A DNA stretch of 64,000 nt from Podarcis vaucheri. Its lineage: Eukaryota. The notes below the pieces were generated by a model, which did not search any database, was not told the origin of the DNA, and saw only the letters and a list, made by a program, of their open reading frames with translations. This document shows positions 1,693 to 15,005 of this stretch, piece after piece (within the stretch, counting starts at the first letter, position 1; each line of letters begins with the position of its first letter). Both the position numbers and the translations under genes were made by a program. Location: the NCBI GenBank assembly GCA_965113315.1, contig OZ220374.1. The stretch is one strand, 5' to 3'.

Positions 1693-3539
1693 CTGCTGGA
1701 TAGTGTTGGGGGTGCTTATTGACAAGGATAGCAAAATGCTATTTCATTATCACTTCTCAGATGAGACAATTTATTTCTGGTGTTTCAAGAGGAAGCCTAA
1801 CCCTCAAGAGGTGACTTGCATGGAAGCTACAGGAAAAGGGGAATGGCTGAAAACAGCCTCTCTCCCCATTCCAGTGAAGGATGCATTCAATCAACTGAAG
1901 GTCACTTACTGGATATTACCACCCAAAGCAAGCAGAGGAAGGCACCCACCCCAGCTTCTTACTCACCACATTTCTATTTCAAAACATAATTTATCTGCCC
2001 ACCCCAAATACTGAAGCAGCTCTCTGGAATTGCTTGTTCTCTGACTAATGAAAGGGACCAGGCTGACTTGTGGAGATCTTCTCAATGGTCATTTCGTCTT
2101 CTGGCGAAGGACATAGTATACTTCCCTTCTGCTCAACAACCTCAACTCTCTAGTTACTAAATATGAAAGCATTCCATGTAGTTTCATCAGCTATTCTATT
2201 AGCTCTGCTGGGTGCCTTTTGGCTCTGCTTGTCCCACATCCGTCACCTCGTTCAGATTCCCTTAATGGTTTCCATCCTAGGTGGTTGAACTGTAATTTTA
2301 AGAACTGGTGCCAGCATTTCCCTTTTTCCTCCTTTCTTCCCATCCATTTGTCTGTAGACTGGGATCATTTATCAGAGCCTATCTATCATGCAGAATTTCA
2401 CTCACCTGACTAGCAGCAATTATGGCTGGAAGTGAACAGCATCCTCCAGTATTGTCAGCCTCTCACTAACCTGTCCTGAACATAATTTTACTTCCTACAT
2501 TAGTTTAAAACTAGTCAAGAAAAATTATGAAACAAAGCTAGTATATCCAGAATGAGATCTAAAAGCAAAAATCAAACTCAAATTAAAAATGGGATTGGCA
2601 ATACACAAATCATTATTCTGTTTTGTAACCCAATGTAGTTTTTTCCTGTGCAGGCATCCAGTTGCCAGAAATGTTCCTAGAAAACAGTCTTCTGTGAACT
2701 GTGACACTAAATACAGGTTAAGACAAACAAACCTTTTCACTTTCTGTAATGACTCACTCCAAGTGATACAACAGACTTCCACGAGGACATGAAAAACTCA
2801 ATTCAGATTACAGCATCTTGTAAATTGGTAAACAGCAAATAAATACACCCTTAAATGGAGCAAGCCAGAAATGTGATTTGGAATTCTAGCTGCTTTGCAA
2901 CTTCCTAGACTGACGGCTTAAGATTTGGACTGTATCTTAACTGTAATACATGGGTTGCCTTTTCTACATTTTTGGCTCCTTAAGCTTATGACACATTTGT
3001 CCTTTGTCATCTAACTCTCTTGTTGACTTATCTGCATTTCTTTTTACACTGGAACATAATAGTAAGGTGGATGGTAACTTAGCTGCAAGTAACTTCTGTA
3101 TGCTATACAGATTATTTTTTCAAGACCTTTATTTATAAAGCACCAACTATTGTACTGGATGCTATATAAATTAAGAACTAGATAGATCCAGACAACATCA
3201 TTTGCTTCAAGGCTAACTTCCAGCTTACTAAAATGAAACTAATAGTCAAGCTCAGCTTAATATCATTCAAGAGATAATGTGCAGCAGAACAAAGGAAACT
3301 CCCATGTCATACCATATTGGTCTATGTAGCTCAGGACTGTCTACACTGATTGACAGTAGCTGTTCAGGCTTTCAGAAATGAACCTTTCCCAGCCCTCCCT
3401 GGAGATGCTGGGGACTGAATCTGGGACCTATTGTAGGCAAAGAAAATGTGCTGTACCACTGAGATATGAAGCTTGCCATTTCAGACTGAAATTAATCAGG
3501 TCAGGCTTGTATTCAGAATACTGAGCTACTGTGCCCCTG

Positions 3540-6000
3540 AGTGCAAAAGGAAGGGAGATAGTAGTAATGTGGGACTTCAATTACCCGGATATTTGTTGGA
3601 TGTCAAACTCAGCCAAGAGCATAAGGTCAAACAGATTCCTCACTGGCCTTGCAGACAACTTCATTGTCCAGAAAGTGGGAGAAGCAACAAGAGGAACAGC
3701 CATTTTAGATCTGGTCCTAACCAATGTTGATGACCTGGTTAGTGGGGTAGAAGTGGAAGGATCATTAGGCACGAGTGATCATGCTCTTCTGAAGTTTACT
3801 ATACAGCGTAAAGGAGCAGCCAAGCATACTAGGACTCAATTTCTTGACTTTAAGAAAGCCAACTTCATAAAACTTAGGGAAGTGCTGGGTGAGATCCCAT
3901 GGACAGGAATACTAAAAGGAAAGGGAGTTCATGATGGCTGGGAGTTTGTTAAGAGGGAGATAGTAAAAGCACAACGTCAGGCAATACCAATGAGACGGAA
4001 ACATGGAAGGTGCCTAAAGAAGCCAGGGTGGCTATCTAAAGAACTTTTAACTGAATTAAGATTAAAAAAGGATGTGTACAAAAAATGGAAAAGGGGGGAA
4101 ACCACCAAAGAGGAATTCAAACAAATAGCCAGCATGTGTAGACACAAAGTCAGAAAAGCTAAAGCACAGAATGAACTCAGGCTTGCTAGAGAGGTTAAAA
4201 GCAACAAAAAAGGCTTTTATGGGTATGTTCGTAGCAAAAGGAAGAACAAAGAAACAGTGGGGTCACTCAGAGGAGAAGATGGTGAAATGCAAACAGGGGA
4301 CACAGAAAGGGCTGAACTCCTCAATGCCTTCTTTGCCTCAGTCTTCTCCGATAAAGAAAACAATGCCCGACCTGAAGAATTTGGAGCAAATGATTCAGCA
4401 AAGGAAACACAGCCCAGAATAACTAAGGAGATAGTACAAGAATACTTGGCTAGTTTAGATGTATTCAAGTCTCCAGGGCCAGATGAACTGCATCCAAGAG
4501 TATTAAAAGAACTGGCAGATGTGATCTCAGAACCACTGGCAGTCATCTTTGAGAATTCCTGGAGAACAGGCGAAGTCCCGGCAGACTGGAGGAGGGCAAA
4601 TGTTGTCCCTATTTTCAAAAAGGGGAAAAGAGAGGACCCAAATAATTACCGCCCAGTTAGTCTGACATCAATAGCAGGGAAGATTCTGGAGCAGATCATT
4701 AAGCAAACAGTCTGTGAGCACCTAGAAAGGAATGCTGTGATCACCAATAGTCAGCATGGATTTCTGAAAAATAAGTCATGTCAGACTAACCTGATCTCGT
4801 TTTTTGACAGAATTACAAGCCTGGTAGATGAAGGGAACGCAGTGGATGTAGCCTACCTTGATTTCAGCAAGGCATTTGACAAGGTGCCCCATGATATTCT
4901 TGTAAAGAAGCTGGTAAAATGCGGTCTTGACTATGCTACCACTCAGTGGATTTGTAACTGGCTGACTGACCAAACCCAAAGGGTGCTCATCAATGGTTCC
5001 TCTTCATCCTGGAGAAGAGTGACTAGTGGGGTGCCACAGGGTTCTGTCTTGGGCCCGGTCTTATTCAACATCTTTATCAACGACTTGGATGATGGACTCA
5101 AGGGCATCCTGATCAAATTTGCAGATGACACCAAACTGGGAGGGGTGGCTAACACCCCAGAGGACAGGATCACACTTCAAAACGACCTTGACAGATTAGA
5201 GAACTGGGCAAAAACAAACAAGATGAATTTTAACAGGGAGAAATGTAAAGTATTGCACTTGGGCAAAAAAAATGAGAGGCACAAATACAAGATGGGTGAC
5301 ACCTGGCTTGAGAGCAGTACATGTGAAAAGGATCTAGGAGTCTTGGTTGACCACAAACTTGACATGAGCCAACAGTGTGACGCGGCAGCTAAAAAAGCCA
5401 ATGCAATTCTGGGCTGCATCAATAGGAGTATAGCATCTAGATCAAGGGAAGTAATAGTGCCACTGTATTCTGCTCTGGTCAGACCTCACCTGGAGTACTG
5501 TGTCCAGTTCTGGGCACCACAGTTCAAGAAGGACACTGACAAACTGGAACGTGTCCAGAGGAGGGCAACCAAAATGGTCAAAGGCCTGGAAACGATGCCT
5601 TATGAGGAACGGCTAAGGGAGCTGGGCATGTTTAGCCTGGAGAAGAGGAGGTTAAGGGGTGATATGATAGCCATGTTCAAATATATAAAAGGATGTCACA
5701 TAGAGGAGGGAGAAAGGTTGTTTTCTGCTGCTCCGGAGAAGCGGACACGGAGCAATGGATCCAAACTACAAGAAAGAAGATTCCACCTAAACATTAGGAA
5801 GAACTTCCTGACAGTAAGAGCTGTTCGACAGTGGAATTTGCTGCCAAGGAGTGTGGTGGAGTCTCCTCCTTTGGAGGTCTTTAAGCAGAGGCTTGACAAC
5901 CATATGTCAGGAGTGCTCTGATGGTGTTTCCTGCTTGGCAGGGGGTTGGACTCGATGGCCCTTGTGGTGTCTTCCAACTCTATGATACTATGATTCTATG
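3540..6000 (+). mobile_element. CR1 LINE, 5'-truncated, young; open ORF2 fragment (end of endonuclease plus RT)
   Basis: Uninterrupted 796-codon frame with [41 protein letters not shown]; 3' end has CR1 ATTCTATG-type octamer repeats at ~5978-6000. Confidence 0.95.
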
Positions 6001-6504
6001 AGTGGCAAATGGTTCTATACACTTATCCCAAATAAGAAGTTTAACAGGAAGGTACTTTGTGCAATTAAAGCGGCAAAAGCAGAAACTACTTCCTCAAATT
6101 TATCTATCTTCTTCAGCCAAAACATCAACCGATTAATAATTGCTAATAGTTACACGACACACAAACACAGAGGCTGTTTCAGTTTCTTGGGGTTTTTAAA
6201 TCAACATAGGAGCTTTATGAGACATTAAATTCCGAGTTAACAATGTACTCAATGCCACCAAGGTATTCCAGGTTCAAACTCAGTATGTGTACACTACACA
6301 TTACTTGCCATCAGGATACATCAAACTCAAATCACTTGGCCAAACACAAGGTTTTTCCACCACTTTTGGATCATCAACCTTTTCCAAGAAGACTTATTTT
6401 TGCTTAGTTGTATGATTTTGAGTCTCTCACATGTGCATGCTGCTCAGGTATAGATGATTAAGGTTCTCACAAAACAGAGGATGCCACAAATTCCATTTCT
6501 TTCC

Positions 6505-7105
6505 TCTATCTGCCTGCGGACTGTCTCGTCAGAGTGGTGCATGCTCTGATTATCTCTCGCTTGGACTACTGCAATGCACTCTACGTGGGGCTACCTTTGA
6601 AGGTGACTCGGAAACTACAACTAATCCAGAATGTGGCAGCTAGACTGGTGACTGGGAGCGGCCGCCGAGACCATATAACACCGGTCTTGAAAGACCTGCA
6701 TTGGCTCCCAGTACGTTTCCGAGCACAATTCAAAGTGTTGGGGCTGACCTTTAAAGCCCTAAACGGCCTCGGTCCAGTATACCTGAAGGAGCGTCTCCAC
6801 CCCCATCATTCTGCCCGGACACTGAGGTCCAGCGCCGAGGGCCTTCTGGCGGTTCCCTCATTGCAAGAAACAAAGCTACAGGGAACCAGGCAGAGGGCCT
6901 TCTCGGTAGTGGCGCCCGCCCTGTGGAACGCCCTTCCAGCAGATGTCAAAGCGATAAACAACTACCTGACATTCAGGAGACATCTTAAGGCAGCCCTGTT
7001 CAGGGAAGTTTTTAACATGTGATATTTTATTGTATTTTTGGTTTTTATGGAAGCCGCCCAGAGTGGCTGGGGAAGCCCAGCCAGATGGGAGGGGTATAAA
7101 TAATA

Positions 7106-7144
<39 letters not shown>

Positions 7145-7157
7145 TATTATTATTATT
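6505..7157 (+). mobile_element. L2 LINE 3' fragment with (TAA)n tail
   Basis: [10 protein letters not shown]...[14 protein letters not shown]...[14 protein letters not shown]...[15 protein letters not shown], followed by 3' UTR and (TAA)n/(TTA)n. Confidence 0.9.
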
Positions 7158-8939
7158 AGAACAGACACCTGCCAGATTAATGTGTCACACTACAGCTACA
7201 CACACAAAACCCTAAAGTACGCCAAAAAGTAGGGTTACTTTCTGAAGCTGTGGCATTTGATAACCCATCTCTGTCCTGTGCAAAGACTTCAGGACAATCA
7301 GATCATCATCAGCACAGAGCAAACTTAATAAACAAATGGAAAAAAGTAGAATTCATACCTGGGAGAACCTGATTCTAATCAACTACTATCAGTGCTACCA
7401 AGTGAGTGTTATTCATTATACTGATTGACTTTGTCTTGAGGGGTTATTGATCACGCAAACTATCATTAACTTGTTTAGTGCCTGATCAGTTTAGTGCCTG
7501 CTGCAATGACAAGAGGAAAGAACTCTTAGTAAACTGTGTGCTATTGGATTTCCTCTCTTTCAATTCAAGGAACATGCAAGGAAAGGATTGGAATCTTCCA
7601 GTGGGCTCACTAACTACACCTTTTCTATGTACTCTAGTTACCTAGTTATTATAATGCACTCTTCATGATGCTAGCCTTAAAGGTGTTCTGAAGCTTCAAC
7701 TGATACAGAACACTACAAGCAAGTTGCTCATTGGACTTGGTCAGTCAGTAACTCAAATTCTGCTTGATTTACAATAAGCTAAAAAAAAGTAGATAATCTA
7801 TTTAAATTGCTTGTATTCTTTATTTCTGAATCACCTCACCCATAACCAAGATTCTCTGCACAATGCACTATAATAAAACCAATAATTAACTAGAAAACTC
7901 TTAACACAGCACACAGGTAAGTATGGAATTCGCTACCACACGATGTTGCAATTGCCACCAATTTGGATGGGTTTAAGAGAGGTTTGCACAAATTCACAGG
8001 CTATCATTGGCTGCCAGCCATTATGGCTGTATATTACCTCTGGTATTGGAAACTATATGCCTCTGAATACCAGTTGCTGGAAATCACAAGTGGGGAGAGT
8101 GCTATGTGTTCATGCACTGCTTGCTGGCTTCCCACAAGCCTCTGAGAACAGGATGTTGGGCTAGATGGGGCTTTGGTCGGATCCAGCAAGGCTCTTAGGT
8201 TCTTATGCAACACAGAAGCTTGGCTTATACAGAGTCAGACCACTGGCCGATCTAGTTCAACATTGCCTATACTGAGCAAAGAAGATGGTCTACCACTGAG
8301 CTACTGCCAGTCCATACTTCTGCTGCCATGGGAAGACTTTTTAAATCCTCAACACACTGGGGACTAAGAAACAAAAAGACCACCTTCTCACACACGTTAT
8401 CCTGTAAACTCTGGTCATCAGCATCCCAGACACTCATATGCGAAAGAGCCTTTCCAGTTGTGATGCTAAGTCAACACTGTGGAATGTCCTCTCAAGGCAG
8501 GCCCACCAGGTAGTGTCTATAGCTTCAAATGATAAGTGGAAATCTGGCTTTTTCCTGCCCGTAATTCGTACTGGATTGATAACTGCAGCTGTGCTTATTT
8601 TATTTTATTTTATGGTGCTTGTTGTTTATTTATTAGCCACAAGTGTTGGTGGCCCCAGGCACTTGAACAAGAAGGACCAACTTTCTTGAAAAACTTAAAA
8701 AAACTGAGGCAGGCGAGGTTCCATGCAAAGAGTTTTCCAATTCCTTCAAGAATGTGAACAAAGGAATTTTATCAGAAATACCCATAAAATATTGTTCCTG
8801 CTTCCATTGGGGCAGGGAAGGGGAAAGAGGAGATTAAGAACCATAATGCCAATATTTCACTTTTTAAAAAACCTGAGATATGGTGCAAAATGTGCAGGGA
8901 TTGGTGTTATTTTTTGTGAGAAACTAACCTGCTCACTAA

Positions 8940-9276
8940 GAGACGCTGGTGGCGCTGTGGTCTAAACCACAGAGCCTAGGGCTTGCCAATCAAAAGGTCG
9001 GCTGTTCGAATCCCTGCCCACTGCTGGTACCAGCTCCTGCCAACCTAGCAGTTCAAAAGCATGTCAAAGTGCAAGTAGATAAATAGGTACCGCTCCGGCA
9101 GAAAGGTAAACAGTGTTTCCCTGTGCTGCTCTGGTTCGCCAGAAGCTTAGTCACGCTGGCCACATGACCCGGAAACTGTACACCAGCTCCCTCGGTCATT
9201 AAAGCGAGATGAGCACCGCAACACCAGAGTCATCCGCGACTGGACCCAACGGTCAGGGGTCCCTTTACCTTTACCT
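8940..9276 (+). mobile_element. Sauria SINE
   Basis: tRNA-like head GACGCTGGTGGCGCTGTGG, conserved body, (ACCTTT)n tail; homologous to four other copies in the window. Confidence 0.9.
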
Positions 9277-9830
9277 AACTGCTCATTGCTACACTCTGGA
9301 AAAATTACTGCAGACACCCTGACTATGAAGGCAGAGGTTTCCTATGTAACCTATGCTATCTCTGAAGGCTGAAGCTATGAATTCTGGATAATAATCTCAG
9401 ATAATGTATATTACCACCGGTTGTATAAACTAGTCTATAGTGACATTCAGCATATTGTCTTCCACCTTCAGTTTCATTGTTTCCAAAGAACGAACAGAAC
9501 CAATACTCTTTCACAAAGCTTGCTGCAAGGATGACTTAAGACCTTTTCACCATGTGGGAACTGCTTCCCAACCCTAAGAAACAACAGCAAGTGCCATGTG
9601 ACTATTGCACTATTTCTCATGCCAATGTTGCCTTGTCTCTCAAAACAAACGATTCCGTTGGCATTGCAAATAACTGCATCATTTGCTTGGCCCACATAAT
9701 TGTCTATTTCAACCTTATCATCTTGCTCAGTTGTTGTTTTTCCCCACCAGCTTTTGTTTCTAGCATTTTAACTGTTTTTCTTGTTAGTCACTCAAGCAGC
9801 ATTCGGGAAGGAAAGCACAGTACAGACAAT

Positions 9831-9881
<51 letters not shown>

Positions 9882-9963
9882 TTTCGTAGATTTTCACGGG
9901 TACAGGAATGCAGGTTTTGGTGTCTTCGGGTGTCTTCCCGTGTAAGAGTCGGGGTGTCTGTGC

Positions 9964-9997
9964 GACGTTTCGACGAGGTCTCACTCGTCATCTTCAG
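9964..9997 (-). ncRNA. Minimal type I hammerhead ribozyme-like motif (left arm)
   Basis: Reverse complement reads CUGAAGA U GACGAG-UGAGAC-CUCGUC GAAA CG UC. Confidence 0.65.
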
Positions 9998-10707
9998 GCT
10001 GGTGCTTTCGGCTTCTTGTTACTGGAACAGAGCAGAATCTGGTGTTTGAGTTCCTATAAATACTGTTGAGGGGTGTGGTGTATAGCCTCCAACGTTCTGG
10101 GCAGAGAGGAAGTTCCTAGATTAGTGTGCCTTTTCTTCTTTTGTTCCTTAATTACTTGAGGGATATCTTGAGTGATTTCATGAGTGATATTCTGAATACC
10201 ACTGGGTGGGTCATTAAGTGTAGATTAGTTGCTAAAGCTTTTGTGTCTTGACCTCTTGAGCTTGTGAAGAGTTTTTCTGAGAAGATGGCTGTGCTGCATT
10301 TAGTTGTACTCTGGCTTGGCTTCGTGTATAGGGGCCAGCTGGCTGGCACAAGGCACAAAACCACAGCTCGCCCCTATACACGAAGCCAAGCCAGAGTACA
10401 ACTAAATGCAGCACAGCCATCTTCTCAGAAAAACTCTTCACAAGCTCAAGAGGTCAAGACACAAAAGCTTTAGCAACTAATCTACACTTAATGACCCACC
10501 CAGTGGTATTCAGAATATCACTCATGAAATCACTCAAGATATCCCTCAAGTAATTAAGGAACAAAAGAAGAAAAGGCACACTAATCTAGGAACTTCCTCT
10601 CTGCCCAGAACGTTGGAGGCTATACACCACACCCCTCAACAGTATTTATAGGAACTCAAACACCAGATTCTGCTCTGTTCCAGTAACAAGAAGCCGAAAG
10701 CACCAGC

Positions 10708-10741
10708 CTGAAGATGACGAGTGAGACCTCGTCGAAACGTC
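10708..10741 (+). ncRNA. Minimal type I hammerhead ribozyme-like motif (right arm)
   Basis: CUGAAGA core, 6-bp stem II, GAAA, palindromic ACGU in place of stem III, GUC cleavage triplet; stem I only ~2 bp. Confidence 0.65.
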
Positions 10742-10888
10742 GCACAGACACCCCGACTCTTACACGGGAAGACACCCGAAGACACCAAAACCTGCATATA
10801 TATATATATATATATATATACTCTTACACGGGAAGACACCCGAAGACACCAAAACCTGCATTCCTGTACCCGTGAAAATCTACGAAAG

Positions 10889-10942
<54 letters not shown>

Positions 10943-11449
10943 TTACAAAGACGTCTCCTACAGACATTACCAAAGCAACCTGACACTCAGCCACAAAAGG
11001 AGTGATCGTAATTAAGGACCAGCTCTAAGTTCCTTACCTGCATACAGGTCAAAGCTGCCACTGAGCCAACAGATTCTTTCTTTCTTTTTTCTTACCCCGC
11101 CCCTTACACCAAGTAGCTCAAGGCATGGCATTTTGTTGCTCCATTTTATCCACACAACACCCCTGCTTCTTTAGTTCAGGCATGACTCACCCATGGTTAC
11201 CCGGTTAACTTCACATCTGAGGGGGAATTTGAACCAGGGCCTTCCCCATCCTTGTCTGATCTGTTAAGTGGTATACAGCCCTGTGCCGCCTTTAAACATT
11301 CCGGGGGTGGCCTGAGTTCGACTCCTACCCTTTCTGTCCACGTGGAAACCACTACTTACTGCGGTAGCATCCCAGGCACATGGCGCCTTCAACCCGCGAT
11401 CCACACACCATATGGCCACGACATCTCCCACAACTGGCCAGAAATGCAG

Positions 11450-12860
11450 GGCAAGAGGGAGGCGTTGCGCAAGAGTTGCCTCAGCCCTTGGCCAGAGACT
11501 TCTGGCGCGAGGAACAAACTAGGCGCAGCCCCAAAGGGAGCTGCTCGGGCTCCCCATCTGGGCAACGGGAAGAAGGACGGGCTACCTCACGGGGCTGCTG
11601 TGAGGAGGAAGCCCCCTTGGGAAACGAGGAAGCTGAAGCGGGCGCCTTCTGCTTCCTCCAAGGCGGAGGCCGCCTCCCCTCCCGCCTCCCCGGGCAACTC
11701 ACCCCACGTTGGCGGGGCGCTCCGTCGGCGGCGGCTCGGCGCTCTCGCTGTCCGAGGCCGAGGAGCAGGAGGAGGCCGAGGACGACGACGACGACCCCGA
11801 GGAAGCGGACGAGGCCGAGCAGGCGCTGGCGCTGTCGGTGGCGTCCGAGTCGCAGGCGCGCTGGGCGGCGCGGAGGCGGGCGGTGGCGGAGGCGGCCAGC
11901 TGCCGCAGCTCCGGGCCCAGCGCGGGCGGAGGAGGCGGCGGCGGAGAAGGCGCCTCGGAGCCCGTCCGCCCGGCCACGCTCCGCGCCAGCCCGGCCAGCT
12001 GCTGCCGGACGTGCCGCTCCACCTGCCGGGCCTGCAGCGCCCGCAGGCGGCGGCACAGGCTCCGCGCCCGGCCCCACAGAGAGGCCTGCCGGGCCCGCGC
12101 TTCCGCCTGGCGCTGCCGGCGACTCTGCGGACGCCACGGCGGGCCGCTCGCCTCAGGCGCAGCCGCCGCCGCCGCCGCCATGGCGGGCCCGGTCGCAGCA
12201 GCCGCCGCCGTCGCCATGAAGGGAGCCGTCGCCTCGGGGCAGGCCGCTCCGCCTCAGCAGCCGCCGCCTCCTCAGCGCCTCAGGGCGGTCCGGGACTCTC
12301 CATGGACTCCCGGCCGGGACAATACGAGCTCGCCCGAGACGGCGCGCGCGCGCCCGGCCCAGATATTTCCCTCCCAGCCCGCGCCTCAGCCGCGGCGCAC
12401 GCATGCGCGTAGGAGCGGGCCGTCGCAGCAAGCCTCTCTCCTTTCTCTCGAGCGCGCGCGCGCGCCAAACACTCGAGTTGCTGACAGAGCGCGGCCGCCG
12501 CAGCCGATAGAGGGCGGTCGCAGCCGTCTGCGCCTGCGCCCCGCAGCCTCTTTCCCCCCCCACTACTCGCCATCTTGTTACCACGTGAGCACCGGGCGTC
12601 GCTGCTGCTCACGCGCCAACGCGCGACCCTCCCATATTCTCTCTTCCGAGGCAGCAGGAGGTGGAAGGGAAGCTCGGGGGAGACGCATGCGCACAACCGT
12701 GGCCCTGCGCGCCCAGCCTTAACCCAAGCGTTTCCCGCGGGCGCCTGCGCAGTAGCCGCCGCAATTACAAATCAACGCAGGAGCCGTCATTGCTGTTACT
12801 ACGCGTCCTGGGCTGCATTCTCACGAGCATGTTTTCTAGTTCCAGGCGCGCCTGGTTTCA
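11450..12860 (-). promoter_or_regulatory. CpG island / promoter of the KANSL1-like gene
   Basis: Very CpG-rich; NRF1-like CGCATGCGC at 12400 and 12684, YY1-like CAAGATGGCG (- strand) 12568-12577, E-box CACGTG 12582-12587. Confidence 0.75.
11703..12217 (-). CDS. KANSL1-family (NSL complex subunit 1-like) gene, first coding exon; gene continues leftward beyond the window
   Basis: RARSLCRRLRALQARQVERHVRQQLAG and LRAAQRACDSDATDS resemble human KANSL1 [27 protein letters not shown] and LRCSEQAFDSDVTDS (recalled); strong donor GG|GTGAGT at 11703/11702, phase 2. Confidence 0.8.
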
Positions 12861-15005
12861 AACTGCAGCTTAACAAAACACGCAGCTCCAGCGTCTCCCA
12901 GATGCGCACAACAGGCAGGAATTCAGCAGGTGGAGCCTTACCCCAGAAGCATTTCCTCCTGATTTTCTATTATGCATCTGCCAGTAAAATGAAAAATGGC
13001 TCTGCAGGTCAAAGGGGGACCTTATCAATATTTTAATCAATCAAACAAGACATATTAGAATCATAGAATTCATACTTTATCCACTATGGTAATGTAACCC
13101 AACCGCCTGCAATGCAGAAATCTTTTGCCCAATTCAGGGCTCCAACCCAAGACGCGGAAAATGAGTCTCAGACGCTACAGACTGAACTATCCCAGGCATA
13201 AAGAGGACAGGCAAATCAAAGCCAGGAAACCAACCCAAACATTCAAGCTTTAAGCAAGCTAACCTTTTTATAGAATACACAGCAGAATGGGGAGAGTTAT
13301 TCCTGAAAATAAATTAATTTTACCACTGAATACTTGCTTGTGGGCATCTTACCCCTTTTTCACAAAGCCCCAGTGCCTGGACAACCTTCTACTGATTTTT
13401 AAATGGCAAGGTGTTACACAGACCCAAGAAGCTGCCAACTGCTGACCACAGCATTCAAAGGCTTTTCTTTCTCAGTCTTTAGACTAATGTCAACACATTA
13501 GCAAATGAGGTTAATGGCAGGTACCCCTATCCTCATCTCTTAGGTTACAGGGACAAGCTGAAACAACTTTTATATTTCCAGGAGGGGAAAAGAAGCAAGG
13601 TTAGAAGTTAAAGAATATAGTATACAATTTTTCATATACATACTCAAGCCAAGGGCTTGTCTGTATTCACGAGAAACCACATTTGTCAGGCTCCCTCTAT
13701 ACTAACCAAATTGAACTCAGAGTTTTGGAATCACTGCAATAGCATATATCTGTATGAAGGGCAATATACAAACCTCGTGCTCATAAAAAATAAAAACATT
13801 ACAATGTGATCTTGAGCACTGTTACTTGGAGGAAAGTTCAGTTGAATTCCGTGAATCTTACTCCCTGCAAAAAGTGGTTAGAACTGCAGCCTTAGCCTTT
13901 AATATACTACAAAATTTAAAGGTTTTCCAAGCACTAAGAGCTCCTGTGGCACAGTGGGTGGTGTGGTAGTCTAGGCCCTTGAAGACCAGAGTTCAAATCT
14001 ATCCTCAGCTATGAAGCTCACTAAATGAGCTTGGACCCTTCACCGTGTCTCAGCCTAACCTTTCTCGGGAGTGTTGTTGTGAGGACAGAATGGAGAGGAA
14101 CAGCAAGGGAAAGGTACAAGATTAAGATACAAGGTAAGTCACATTTCTACAAATTCTGAAAACAATATAAATGCTACCGATTAGCATGTATTAACTATGC
14201 ACAGCAAAGCAGCAACTAATACTCAGCACAAAGTATATAATAAGCATGGTACATTGCCTGCACTCATTTAGATTGTCATAGTATGCATAACTTTTCAAAA
14301 ATGCTGAAATGTGGCAGAAAAATAAGAATGTGGCTCCGAAGAGTGCTTCATCTGGCCCTTCTTTCCTCACTTTTAAGTATATTATTGCAAGTTATATTCT
14401 GGCAGACATTTCTGGTGGAGGCACCAAAACAATATGTTACTATGTTGCTGCAGTTTGCTGGCGTATATAATTTTGTTCCCATTATTGTTTTGTTCCCATT
14501 ATTGCTCATTTTAGATTGTATTTTAGTTTGTTTGGTTGCTGTATCTTTTTAAAATAAGAGAACCTGTTTCAAATTAAGATTCCTGCAAACTTCACTCAAT
14601 GCAGATGAAATTAAAAATGAAGAATGTTCATTAGCACTGCGTGGAGTTTGCAGGTTTCTTATTTAACCAAGTCTTGCTGTTTTGCCACACTCCTCTTCAC
14701 ACATCCCTCATTGTAACAGATATACAGTAAGCAGGAACTGAAATCCACAACCAAACACTCACAGAAGAGGTGTTCAAATTGCAGCAGAGTGTTGGCCATT
14801 ACTATGTCTACAACCTAAAGCTCCAATTTGCTCATCCCAGGCTATCTGAAGAACTGCATCCTCCCATACGAATCTGCCCAAACTCTGAAACCTGCTTACT
14901 TGGCACTAACTTCCCTTGAACTTGGATTTCTGAGTAAACATGCATAGTGGTGGGCTGTACGAATACATGCCAAGACCATTAGGGAGACCTCTGGGCAGGG
15001 TCTGG

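Follow-up and report, generated by a model that had tools for sequence, protein, structure and literature searches.

A recent head-to-head insertion of two Poseidon-type element ends into a short (TA)n in Podarcis vaucheri, likely copied twice from one RNA

An interrupted palindrome in an intron

The window analysed here is a 64,000-nucleotide stretch of the Podarcis vaucheri genome (assembly GCA_965113315.1, contig OZ220374.1). We compared the window with itself and found two inverted arms of 434 nt (9908–10341 and 10364–10797) on either side of a 22-nt spacer (10342–10363); alignment of the arms with blastn gave 99.77% identity, equal to a single mismatch. A further 28 nt pair outside the main arms (9880–9907 with 10862–10889), and the right side is broken by an (AT)12 run and a 42-nt duplication (10820–10861 is identical to 10756–10797). 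A sequence-only reading of the window had described a near-perfect palindrome of ~1 kb with arms of ~460 bp. The palindrome is real, as are its 22-nt loop and near-perfect pairing, but the right side consists of two pieces rather than one 460-bp arm. The (TA)n reported on both flanks proved to be (AT)22 and (AT)24. In element numbering, which counts from the ATG of the element, the order is (AT)22, inverted −349 to +118, direct −374 to +84, (AT)12, direct +43 to +118, (AT)24. The features are as follows.

9836–9879, no strand: left (AT)22 run, read from the sequence; between the same flanks the empty allele has only 14–19 letters
9880–10341, minus strand: inverted arm, element −349 to +118, with tail, 99.6% identical to the intact copy L016; 9880–9907 is unique and the remainder of the outer end overlaps the AT run
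9962–9999, minus strand: minimal hammerhead motif, mirror of 10706–10743, sense on the host gene's strand
10334–10343, no strand: head-to-head junction, with a 3-nt arm overlap, a 10-nt self-palindrome and the single arm mismatch
10339–10797, plus strand: direct arm, element −374 to +84, without tail, taking in the 22-nt loop, 100% identical to L016
10339–10473, plus strand: end of the open reading frame (ORF) in the direct arm (last 44 codons and stop), followed by the pLTR
10643–10650, plus strand: TATA-like box ~30 nt 5′ of the family's 5′-end hot spot at −41 (10672); putative promoter
10706–10743, plus strand: minimal hammerhead motif, predicted to cleave after 10741 (+28), holding the element ATG at 10714
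10796–10819, no strand: internal (AT)12 run
10820–10895, plus strand: third piece, element +43 to +118, 76 nt, with tail, without ribozyme core
10892–10939, no strand: right (AT)24 run
11702–12217, minus strand: host-gene coding exon upstream of the insert, with a GT donor at its 3′ end (~11702); the insert lies in the following intron

A 28-nt pattern from the junction of the window palindrome occurs once in the genome, indicating that the palindrome was made at this site and not copied as a unit. The same single-copy junction rules out a MITE or foldback DNA transposon that moves as a palindromic family with a fixed centre. Short pieces beginning at +42 or +43, like that at 10820–10895, recur within TA runs (L042, L048), and this position is a possible stall site.

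We take the host gene to be KANSL1-like from KANSL1 motifs, which also identified a candidate next exon ~5 kb before the window. The KANSL1-like intron named in the sequence-only reading is consistent with this exon, with the minus-strand exon and its GT donor, and with a PEHE domain above the Pfam cut-off ~38 kb downstream on the same strand as the host exon; Pfam and PDB searches of single host exons gave no name. Within 11725–11947, the host coding exon differs among sequencing runs by in-frame indels (insertions of 3 nt at 11725, deletions of 3 and 15 nt around 11930). Other repeats in the window are presumably a fragment of a CR1-type LINE ORF2 (a 798-aa open frame at 3525–5921, plus strand), an L2 fragment (6462–7022) and a Sauria SINE (~8945–9275). 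A repeat similar to the last lies in the flank of L002.

The element family and its hammerhead motif

We used the arm as a query against its own genome and obtained 15 matches, several at 100% identity. The copy at L016 has an intact 906-aa ORF, the end of which matches the last 44 codons in the window, with an RVT_1 domain (E 6.7e-15) and a GIY-YIG domain (E 0.0011; 19.7 bits, under the Pfam cut-off of 22.6); its pLTR forms a partial tandem (4028–4351 and 6989–7312, 100% identical). The hammerhead contains the ATG of the ORF, which falls where stem II begins. The GIY-YIG domain has a CCHH motif, and reading the L016 protein by eye against the description in PMC8557442 revealed no Neptune/Nematis CX2-5CxxC linker upstream. 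A PDB search with the element protein returned distant bacterial RTs only. Judged by its sequence, the element is a young, endonuclease-bearing (RT and GIY-YIG) Penelope-like element (PLE) of Poseidon type. The earlier proposal of a Penelope-like origin is supported by the intact L016 copy and by the match of pLTR and arms to it.

The window insert is an ordinary dead stub that lacks an ORF, and its structure is not special, since thousands of such units are present in the genome. The layout itself is already known: an inverted 5′-truncated copy with a tail on one side, flanking microsatellites and hammerheads paired on opposite strands. As described in the available text of PMC3846280 and PMC8557442, Pen2a_Av, Naiad and the general PLE scheme share the adjacent inverted 5′-truncated copy and a head-to-head junction with a small palindrome, and inverted-pLTR insertions often carry a 30–40 bp tail at one end only, in (TA)n that hides the target duplication. 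Hammerhead pairs 100–700 bp apart on opposite strands are also reported from metazoan PLEs (PMC4209133).

The element further resembles PAc (Poseidon_Ac) of Anolis carolinensis, in described features rather than sequence identity: both have an RT with a C-terminal GIY-YIG domain, an ORF that starts at hammerhead stem II, ends at two sites bounding the tail, the outer at +118, and AT-rich targets (PMC11167929). For PAc, the accessible text reports that both strands are nicked and extended, that two RT start sites bound the tail, one of them at +111–118, and that hammerhead cleavage is not needed for insertion; it gives no counts, for genomic head-to-head units, of how ends pair, how alike the arms are or whether the target run grew. 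Further background is given in accessible parts of 10.64898/2026.07.22.740005 and PMC9977147.

We found 11,012 exact copies of the 37-nt hammerhead core genome-wide and none of the reversed control, indicating that the core match is not due to chance. The core reads CUGAAGA-U-stem II (6 bp)-GAAA-CG-UC, with a palindromic CG stem III and a stem I of 2 bp. As in the minimal hammerheads described for metazoan PLEs (PMC4209133), the core boxes, stem II, the extra nucleotide 9/10.1, the G10.1–C11.1 pair and the palindromic stem III (15.2–16.2) are present. By contrast, stem I is 2 bp long, as in D. virilis, rather than 4–5 bp, and the window locus has no same-strand partner. The sequence-only reading had noted a core in each arm and the short stem I, and both are as noted. 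The hammerhead search that it suggested, run as an Rfam scan of 8000–13000, found no hammerhead family at E ≤ 10; the top match was a generic hairpin, mir-3910 (60 bits, below the gathering score of 95).

Cleavage as a dimer, also proposed earlier, is not supported for this locus: the two motifs lie on opposite strands, so neither has a same-strand partner, an RNA made from either strand would hold a single sense motif next to an antisense one, and no core is present in the third piece. The inverted arrangement likewise rules out a non-LTR retrozyme, in which hammerhead monomers run head to tail. Folding of the minus-strand pre-mRNA predicted a duplex of −957 kcal/mol with all 37 core positions paired with the other arm, consistent at the level of prediction with the suggestion that a long duplex sequesters the ribozyme. 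We considered whether the insert is a functional RNA element, as a dimer-cleaving ribozyme or as a regulatory dsRNA of the host gene. The core motif is intact and the duplex is predicted to be stable, but each transcript would carry a single sense motif that is fully paired in the predicted fold, the insert is missing from other chromosomes of the species, thousands of similar units exist in the genome, and the 5′ ends of copies are not concentrated where the ribozyme would cleave; we regard this explanation as extremely improbable.

We looked for an excess of 5′ ends at +29, the position that ribozyme cleavage would produce, and saw no clear spike. Among 100 of the 104 listed matches, tallied by hand, ends fell at +29 (21), +26 (20), +31 (16), +22 (10) and, less often, other positions, with 4 indels; several of the +29 cases are one recurring microhomology join. 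The interval around the cleavage site held 104 matches, compared with 140 in a control interval. The lack of a pile-up agrees with the report that PAc does not need hammerhead cleavage to insert (PMC11167929). RNA that had not been cleaved was the template for all 11,012 intact cores.

Empty alleles and TA runs

We compared the window flanks with contigs of public sequencing runs and counted the letters between the flanks; contigs from the left and right comparisons were matched by equal length, depth and strand only. In X9 (1,473 nt, depth 12.3, plus strand), window positions 9714–9835 correspond to letters 1–122 and 10940–12000 to letters 137–1186, with 14 letters between them. X1 (2,791 nt, depth 62.1, minus strand) has 15 letters between 9835 and 10941, and X4 (1,016 nt, depth 10, minus strand) has 19 between 9835 and 10940. 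The site is empty in all three same-species runs, which come from two studies, indicating that the insertion is polymorphic within the species; the filled allele is represented by the assembly alone. Together with the absence of differences between the arms in 417 columns away from the junction, this presence/absence comparison, itself suggested in the sequence-only reading, supports the earlier claim of a very recent insertion. X12 (organism D), compared on one flank only, has 616 letters beyond 10940 and is compatible with an empty site, and X3 (organism B) gave no contig on the left flank. In X3, 0.86 of the arm's words are present, and two other runs of that study have almost none; contamination, mislabelling and horizontal transfer are alternative sources.

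The same comparison bears on whether the insert is an assembly or fold-back artefact. X1 has near-identical flanks (one difference in ~1.6 kb), may be the source sample, and is nevertheless empty. At 11725, however, the full depth of X1 disagrees with the window, so X1 is probably another chromosome. Moreover, the unique flanks differ between the two sides, the arms stop exactly at the two biological ends of the family, the tail is asymmetric and the junction is unique. We give an artefact next to no credence.

TA runs are present at 108 of 114 sampled element ends (median 14.5 units; at least 10 units in 93 of the 108), with six ends lacking a run. By contrast, ~113 kb of nearby sequence outside the insert contains just four TA runs, of 4–5 units each. 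The empty site has at most 14–19 letters where the filled one has (AT)22 on the left and (AT)24 on the right, and lengthening of the TA runs likely accompanied the insertion. At two loci inside other repeats, the paralogues have at most (TA)5 (18 of 19 read, L082 being left out) or ~(TA)6 (19 read, some without the full site), whereas the filled counterparts have 6–23 and 11 + 11 TA units. At imperfect targets we observed plain target duplications with no added TA, of 13 bp at L030 and 12 bp at L037; in the window, any target-site duplication is hidden in TA. At L050 (780–889), the repeat hosting the insertion matches both strands at the same places, so this host repeat itself contains an inverted repeat.

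This growth is most simply explained by slippage on pure TA overhangs. Alternatively, rare long alleles may have been selected, the runs may have lengthened once the insert was in place, or the target chromosome may already have carried a longer TA allele. RNA-templated, telomerase-like addition of TA is disfavoured by the plain 12–13 bp duplications, seen at two loci only. A doubling model, which predicts bimodal run lengths, was rejected: BIC did not prefer two components, and 273 of 500 null sets exceeded the observed value; the valley ratio was picked post hoc and was not counted. Retroelements have been tied to microsatellites in squamate genomes before, through LINEs (CR1-L3 and Rex) that carry the repeat (AATAG) in their 3′ tail (PMC6050309, as far as its available text goes). 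By contrast, the element described here does not itself carry a TA tail, and the run on either side appears to be lengthened target sequence.

Paired ends and the probable copying of one RNA

We next counted head-to-head units at all 44 loci holding the first 100 listed core matches on C1, with a cut-off of 60 nt for pairing; the sample requires an intact core and is therefore biased to young copies, and units within L035 and within L026 are not independent. There are 47 head-to-head units at 35 of the 44 loci. One +84 end is combined with one +118 end in 40 of 46 classifiable units (p 1.4e-7), and in 30 of 35 when one unit is taken per locus (p 1.1e-5); the window, with an adjacent inverted 5′-truncated copy bearing the 34-nt tail, has this arrangement. 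Like ends were found in 6 of the 46, and L065 (+84/+84, 96-nt gap) was left out as beyond the cut-off.

Arms differ at 17 of 12,629 columns within units (0.14%), compared with 5,075 of 344,253 between loci (1.5%), and 94 variants relative to L016 are common to both arms of a unit. The 5′ breakpoints of the two arms lie at most 60 nt apart in 31 of 47 units, where permutation gives a mean of 9.9; when 11 units at the −41 hot spot are removed, the count is 20 of 36 (mean 4.2). The tail is on the shorter arm in 20 units, on the longer in 8, and the arms are equal in 12 (p 0.036). End pairing, low arm divergence and matched breakpoints favour the copying of one RNA twice, into both target strands. 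A leading RT starting from +84 and a trailing RT starting from +118 on one RNA would account for the pairing, the arm identity, the breakpoints and the tail counts, and such a two-cDNA model agrees with what is described for PAc, namely nicking of both strands, a pair of start sites and a predicted dimer (PMC11167929).

The same-template signal could have another source, namely gene conversion between arms or one dominant source locus, in which case two RNAs or two events would have produced each unit. Consistent with this, arms differ at 5 of 411 positions in L067 and 6 of 307 in L016, the latter from the selected set, as expected of independent templates that differ by 1–2%, and multi-piece loci are common. 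However, extra assumptions would be needed for the matched 5′ breakpoints outside the hot spot, and also for an exact, spacer-less −41/−41 junction found at 192 sites (e.g. L027, L037, L049, L057), ~30 nt past the TATA-like box. We consider two RNAs or events very unlikely. Position −41 is likely the natural RNA 5′ end of the element, and identical −41/−41 junctions would be expected if both RTs ran off the natural start of the RNA. Two neighbouring units have an identical junction in L018 (2714–6880; −666/−1403) and in L035 (1703–2362; −36/−36, 46-nt filler), suggesting that whole units are sometimes duplicated or re-copied.

Self-priming would also give near-identical arms. The available text of PMC3846280 and PMC8557442 interprets the microsatellite as a preferred target and attributes the palindrome to antisense self-priming, whereas at the window locus the empty allele has only a short run, and our counts are more in line with two cDNAs made from a single sense RNA. 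Either antisense RNA, as proposed in PMC3846280, or a nascent cDNA would fold back at its 3′ end and copy itself, which gives a direct account of arm identity and matched lengths; the window junction, in which a 3-nt CAG/CTG closes the 22-nt loop beside the 10-nt palindrome, suits such a fold. However, if a cDNA snapped back, the tail would in every case sit on the longer arm, opposite to the excess observed. A single folded-back cDNA has no means of gaining a tail that is missing from its template, which calls for either two cDNAs or an antisense template; the latter could also place the tail on the shorter arm. In addition, arm lengths in many units differ by hundreds to more than 1,000 nt, and the anole enzyme in vitro is reported to use sense RNA, both start sites and both strands (PMC11167929). 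We regard self-priming as unlikely.

We conclude, with a probability of roughly 0.7, that the window holds a recent ORF-less head-to-head insertion of two 5′-truncated Poseidon-type 3′ ends, likely made by copying a single RNA twice, once into each strand of a short (TA)n. From the element's identity, its end positions, the unique junction and the empty allele, all of which are observed, we infer the following copying steps. The RT-GIY-YIG protein, whose anole counterpart is predicted to form a dimer, would nick both strands ~12–13 nt apart. One strand would prime cDNA at +84 and the other at +118, via AU/AUAU microhomology. Both RTs would travel the same RNA, the one from +118 usually behind, and both would halt near the same place, after which the two cDNA ends would join by 1–3 nt of microhomology. 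Slippage on self-complementary TA overhangs likely extended the run on both sides, the +43 to +118 piece is probably a further abortive priming in the same run, and the hammerheads would be passengers of the pLTR. Our literature search, with subscription papers and Repbase outside its scope, found no statement of single-RNA double copying or of TA growth at insertion. As a general rule, that Poseidon copies a single RNA twice in this way, leading RT at +84 and trailing RT at +118 on opposite strands, and turns a short TA seed (~7 units at the window locus) into 10–29 units per side, we put the proposal forward tentatively, at somewhat short of even odds.

What is new beyond the known layout is the mechanism counts and the empty allele, rather than the window locus. 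The available text of PMC8557442 and PMC11167929 lists among its open questions how PLEs come to form inverted units and tails on one side. As material on this mechanism, the P. vaucheri genome offers nearly identical ends in ~11,000 copies, together with an intact ORF and empty sites that are polymorphic. The proposal can be tested by counting in the existing anole in vitro system: each unit should have one end of each kind, its arms should derive from the same template, and the target run should lengthen. If TA runs grow at insertion, the microsatellite "preference" of PLEs would be partly a product of insertion. If, in addition, a single RNA is copied twice, the element would make, and not just use, long TA microsatellites, and would make thousands of near-perfect palindromes in a vertebrate genome.
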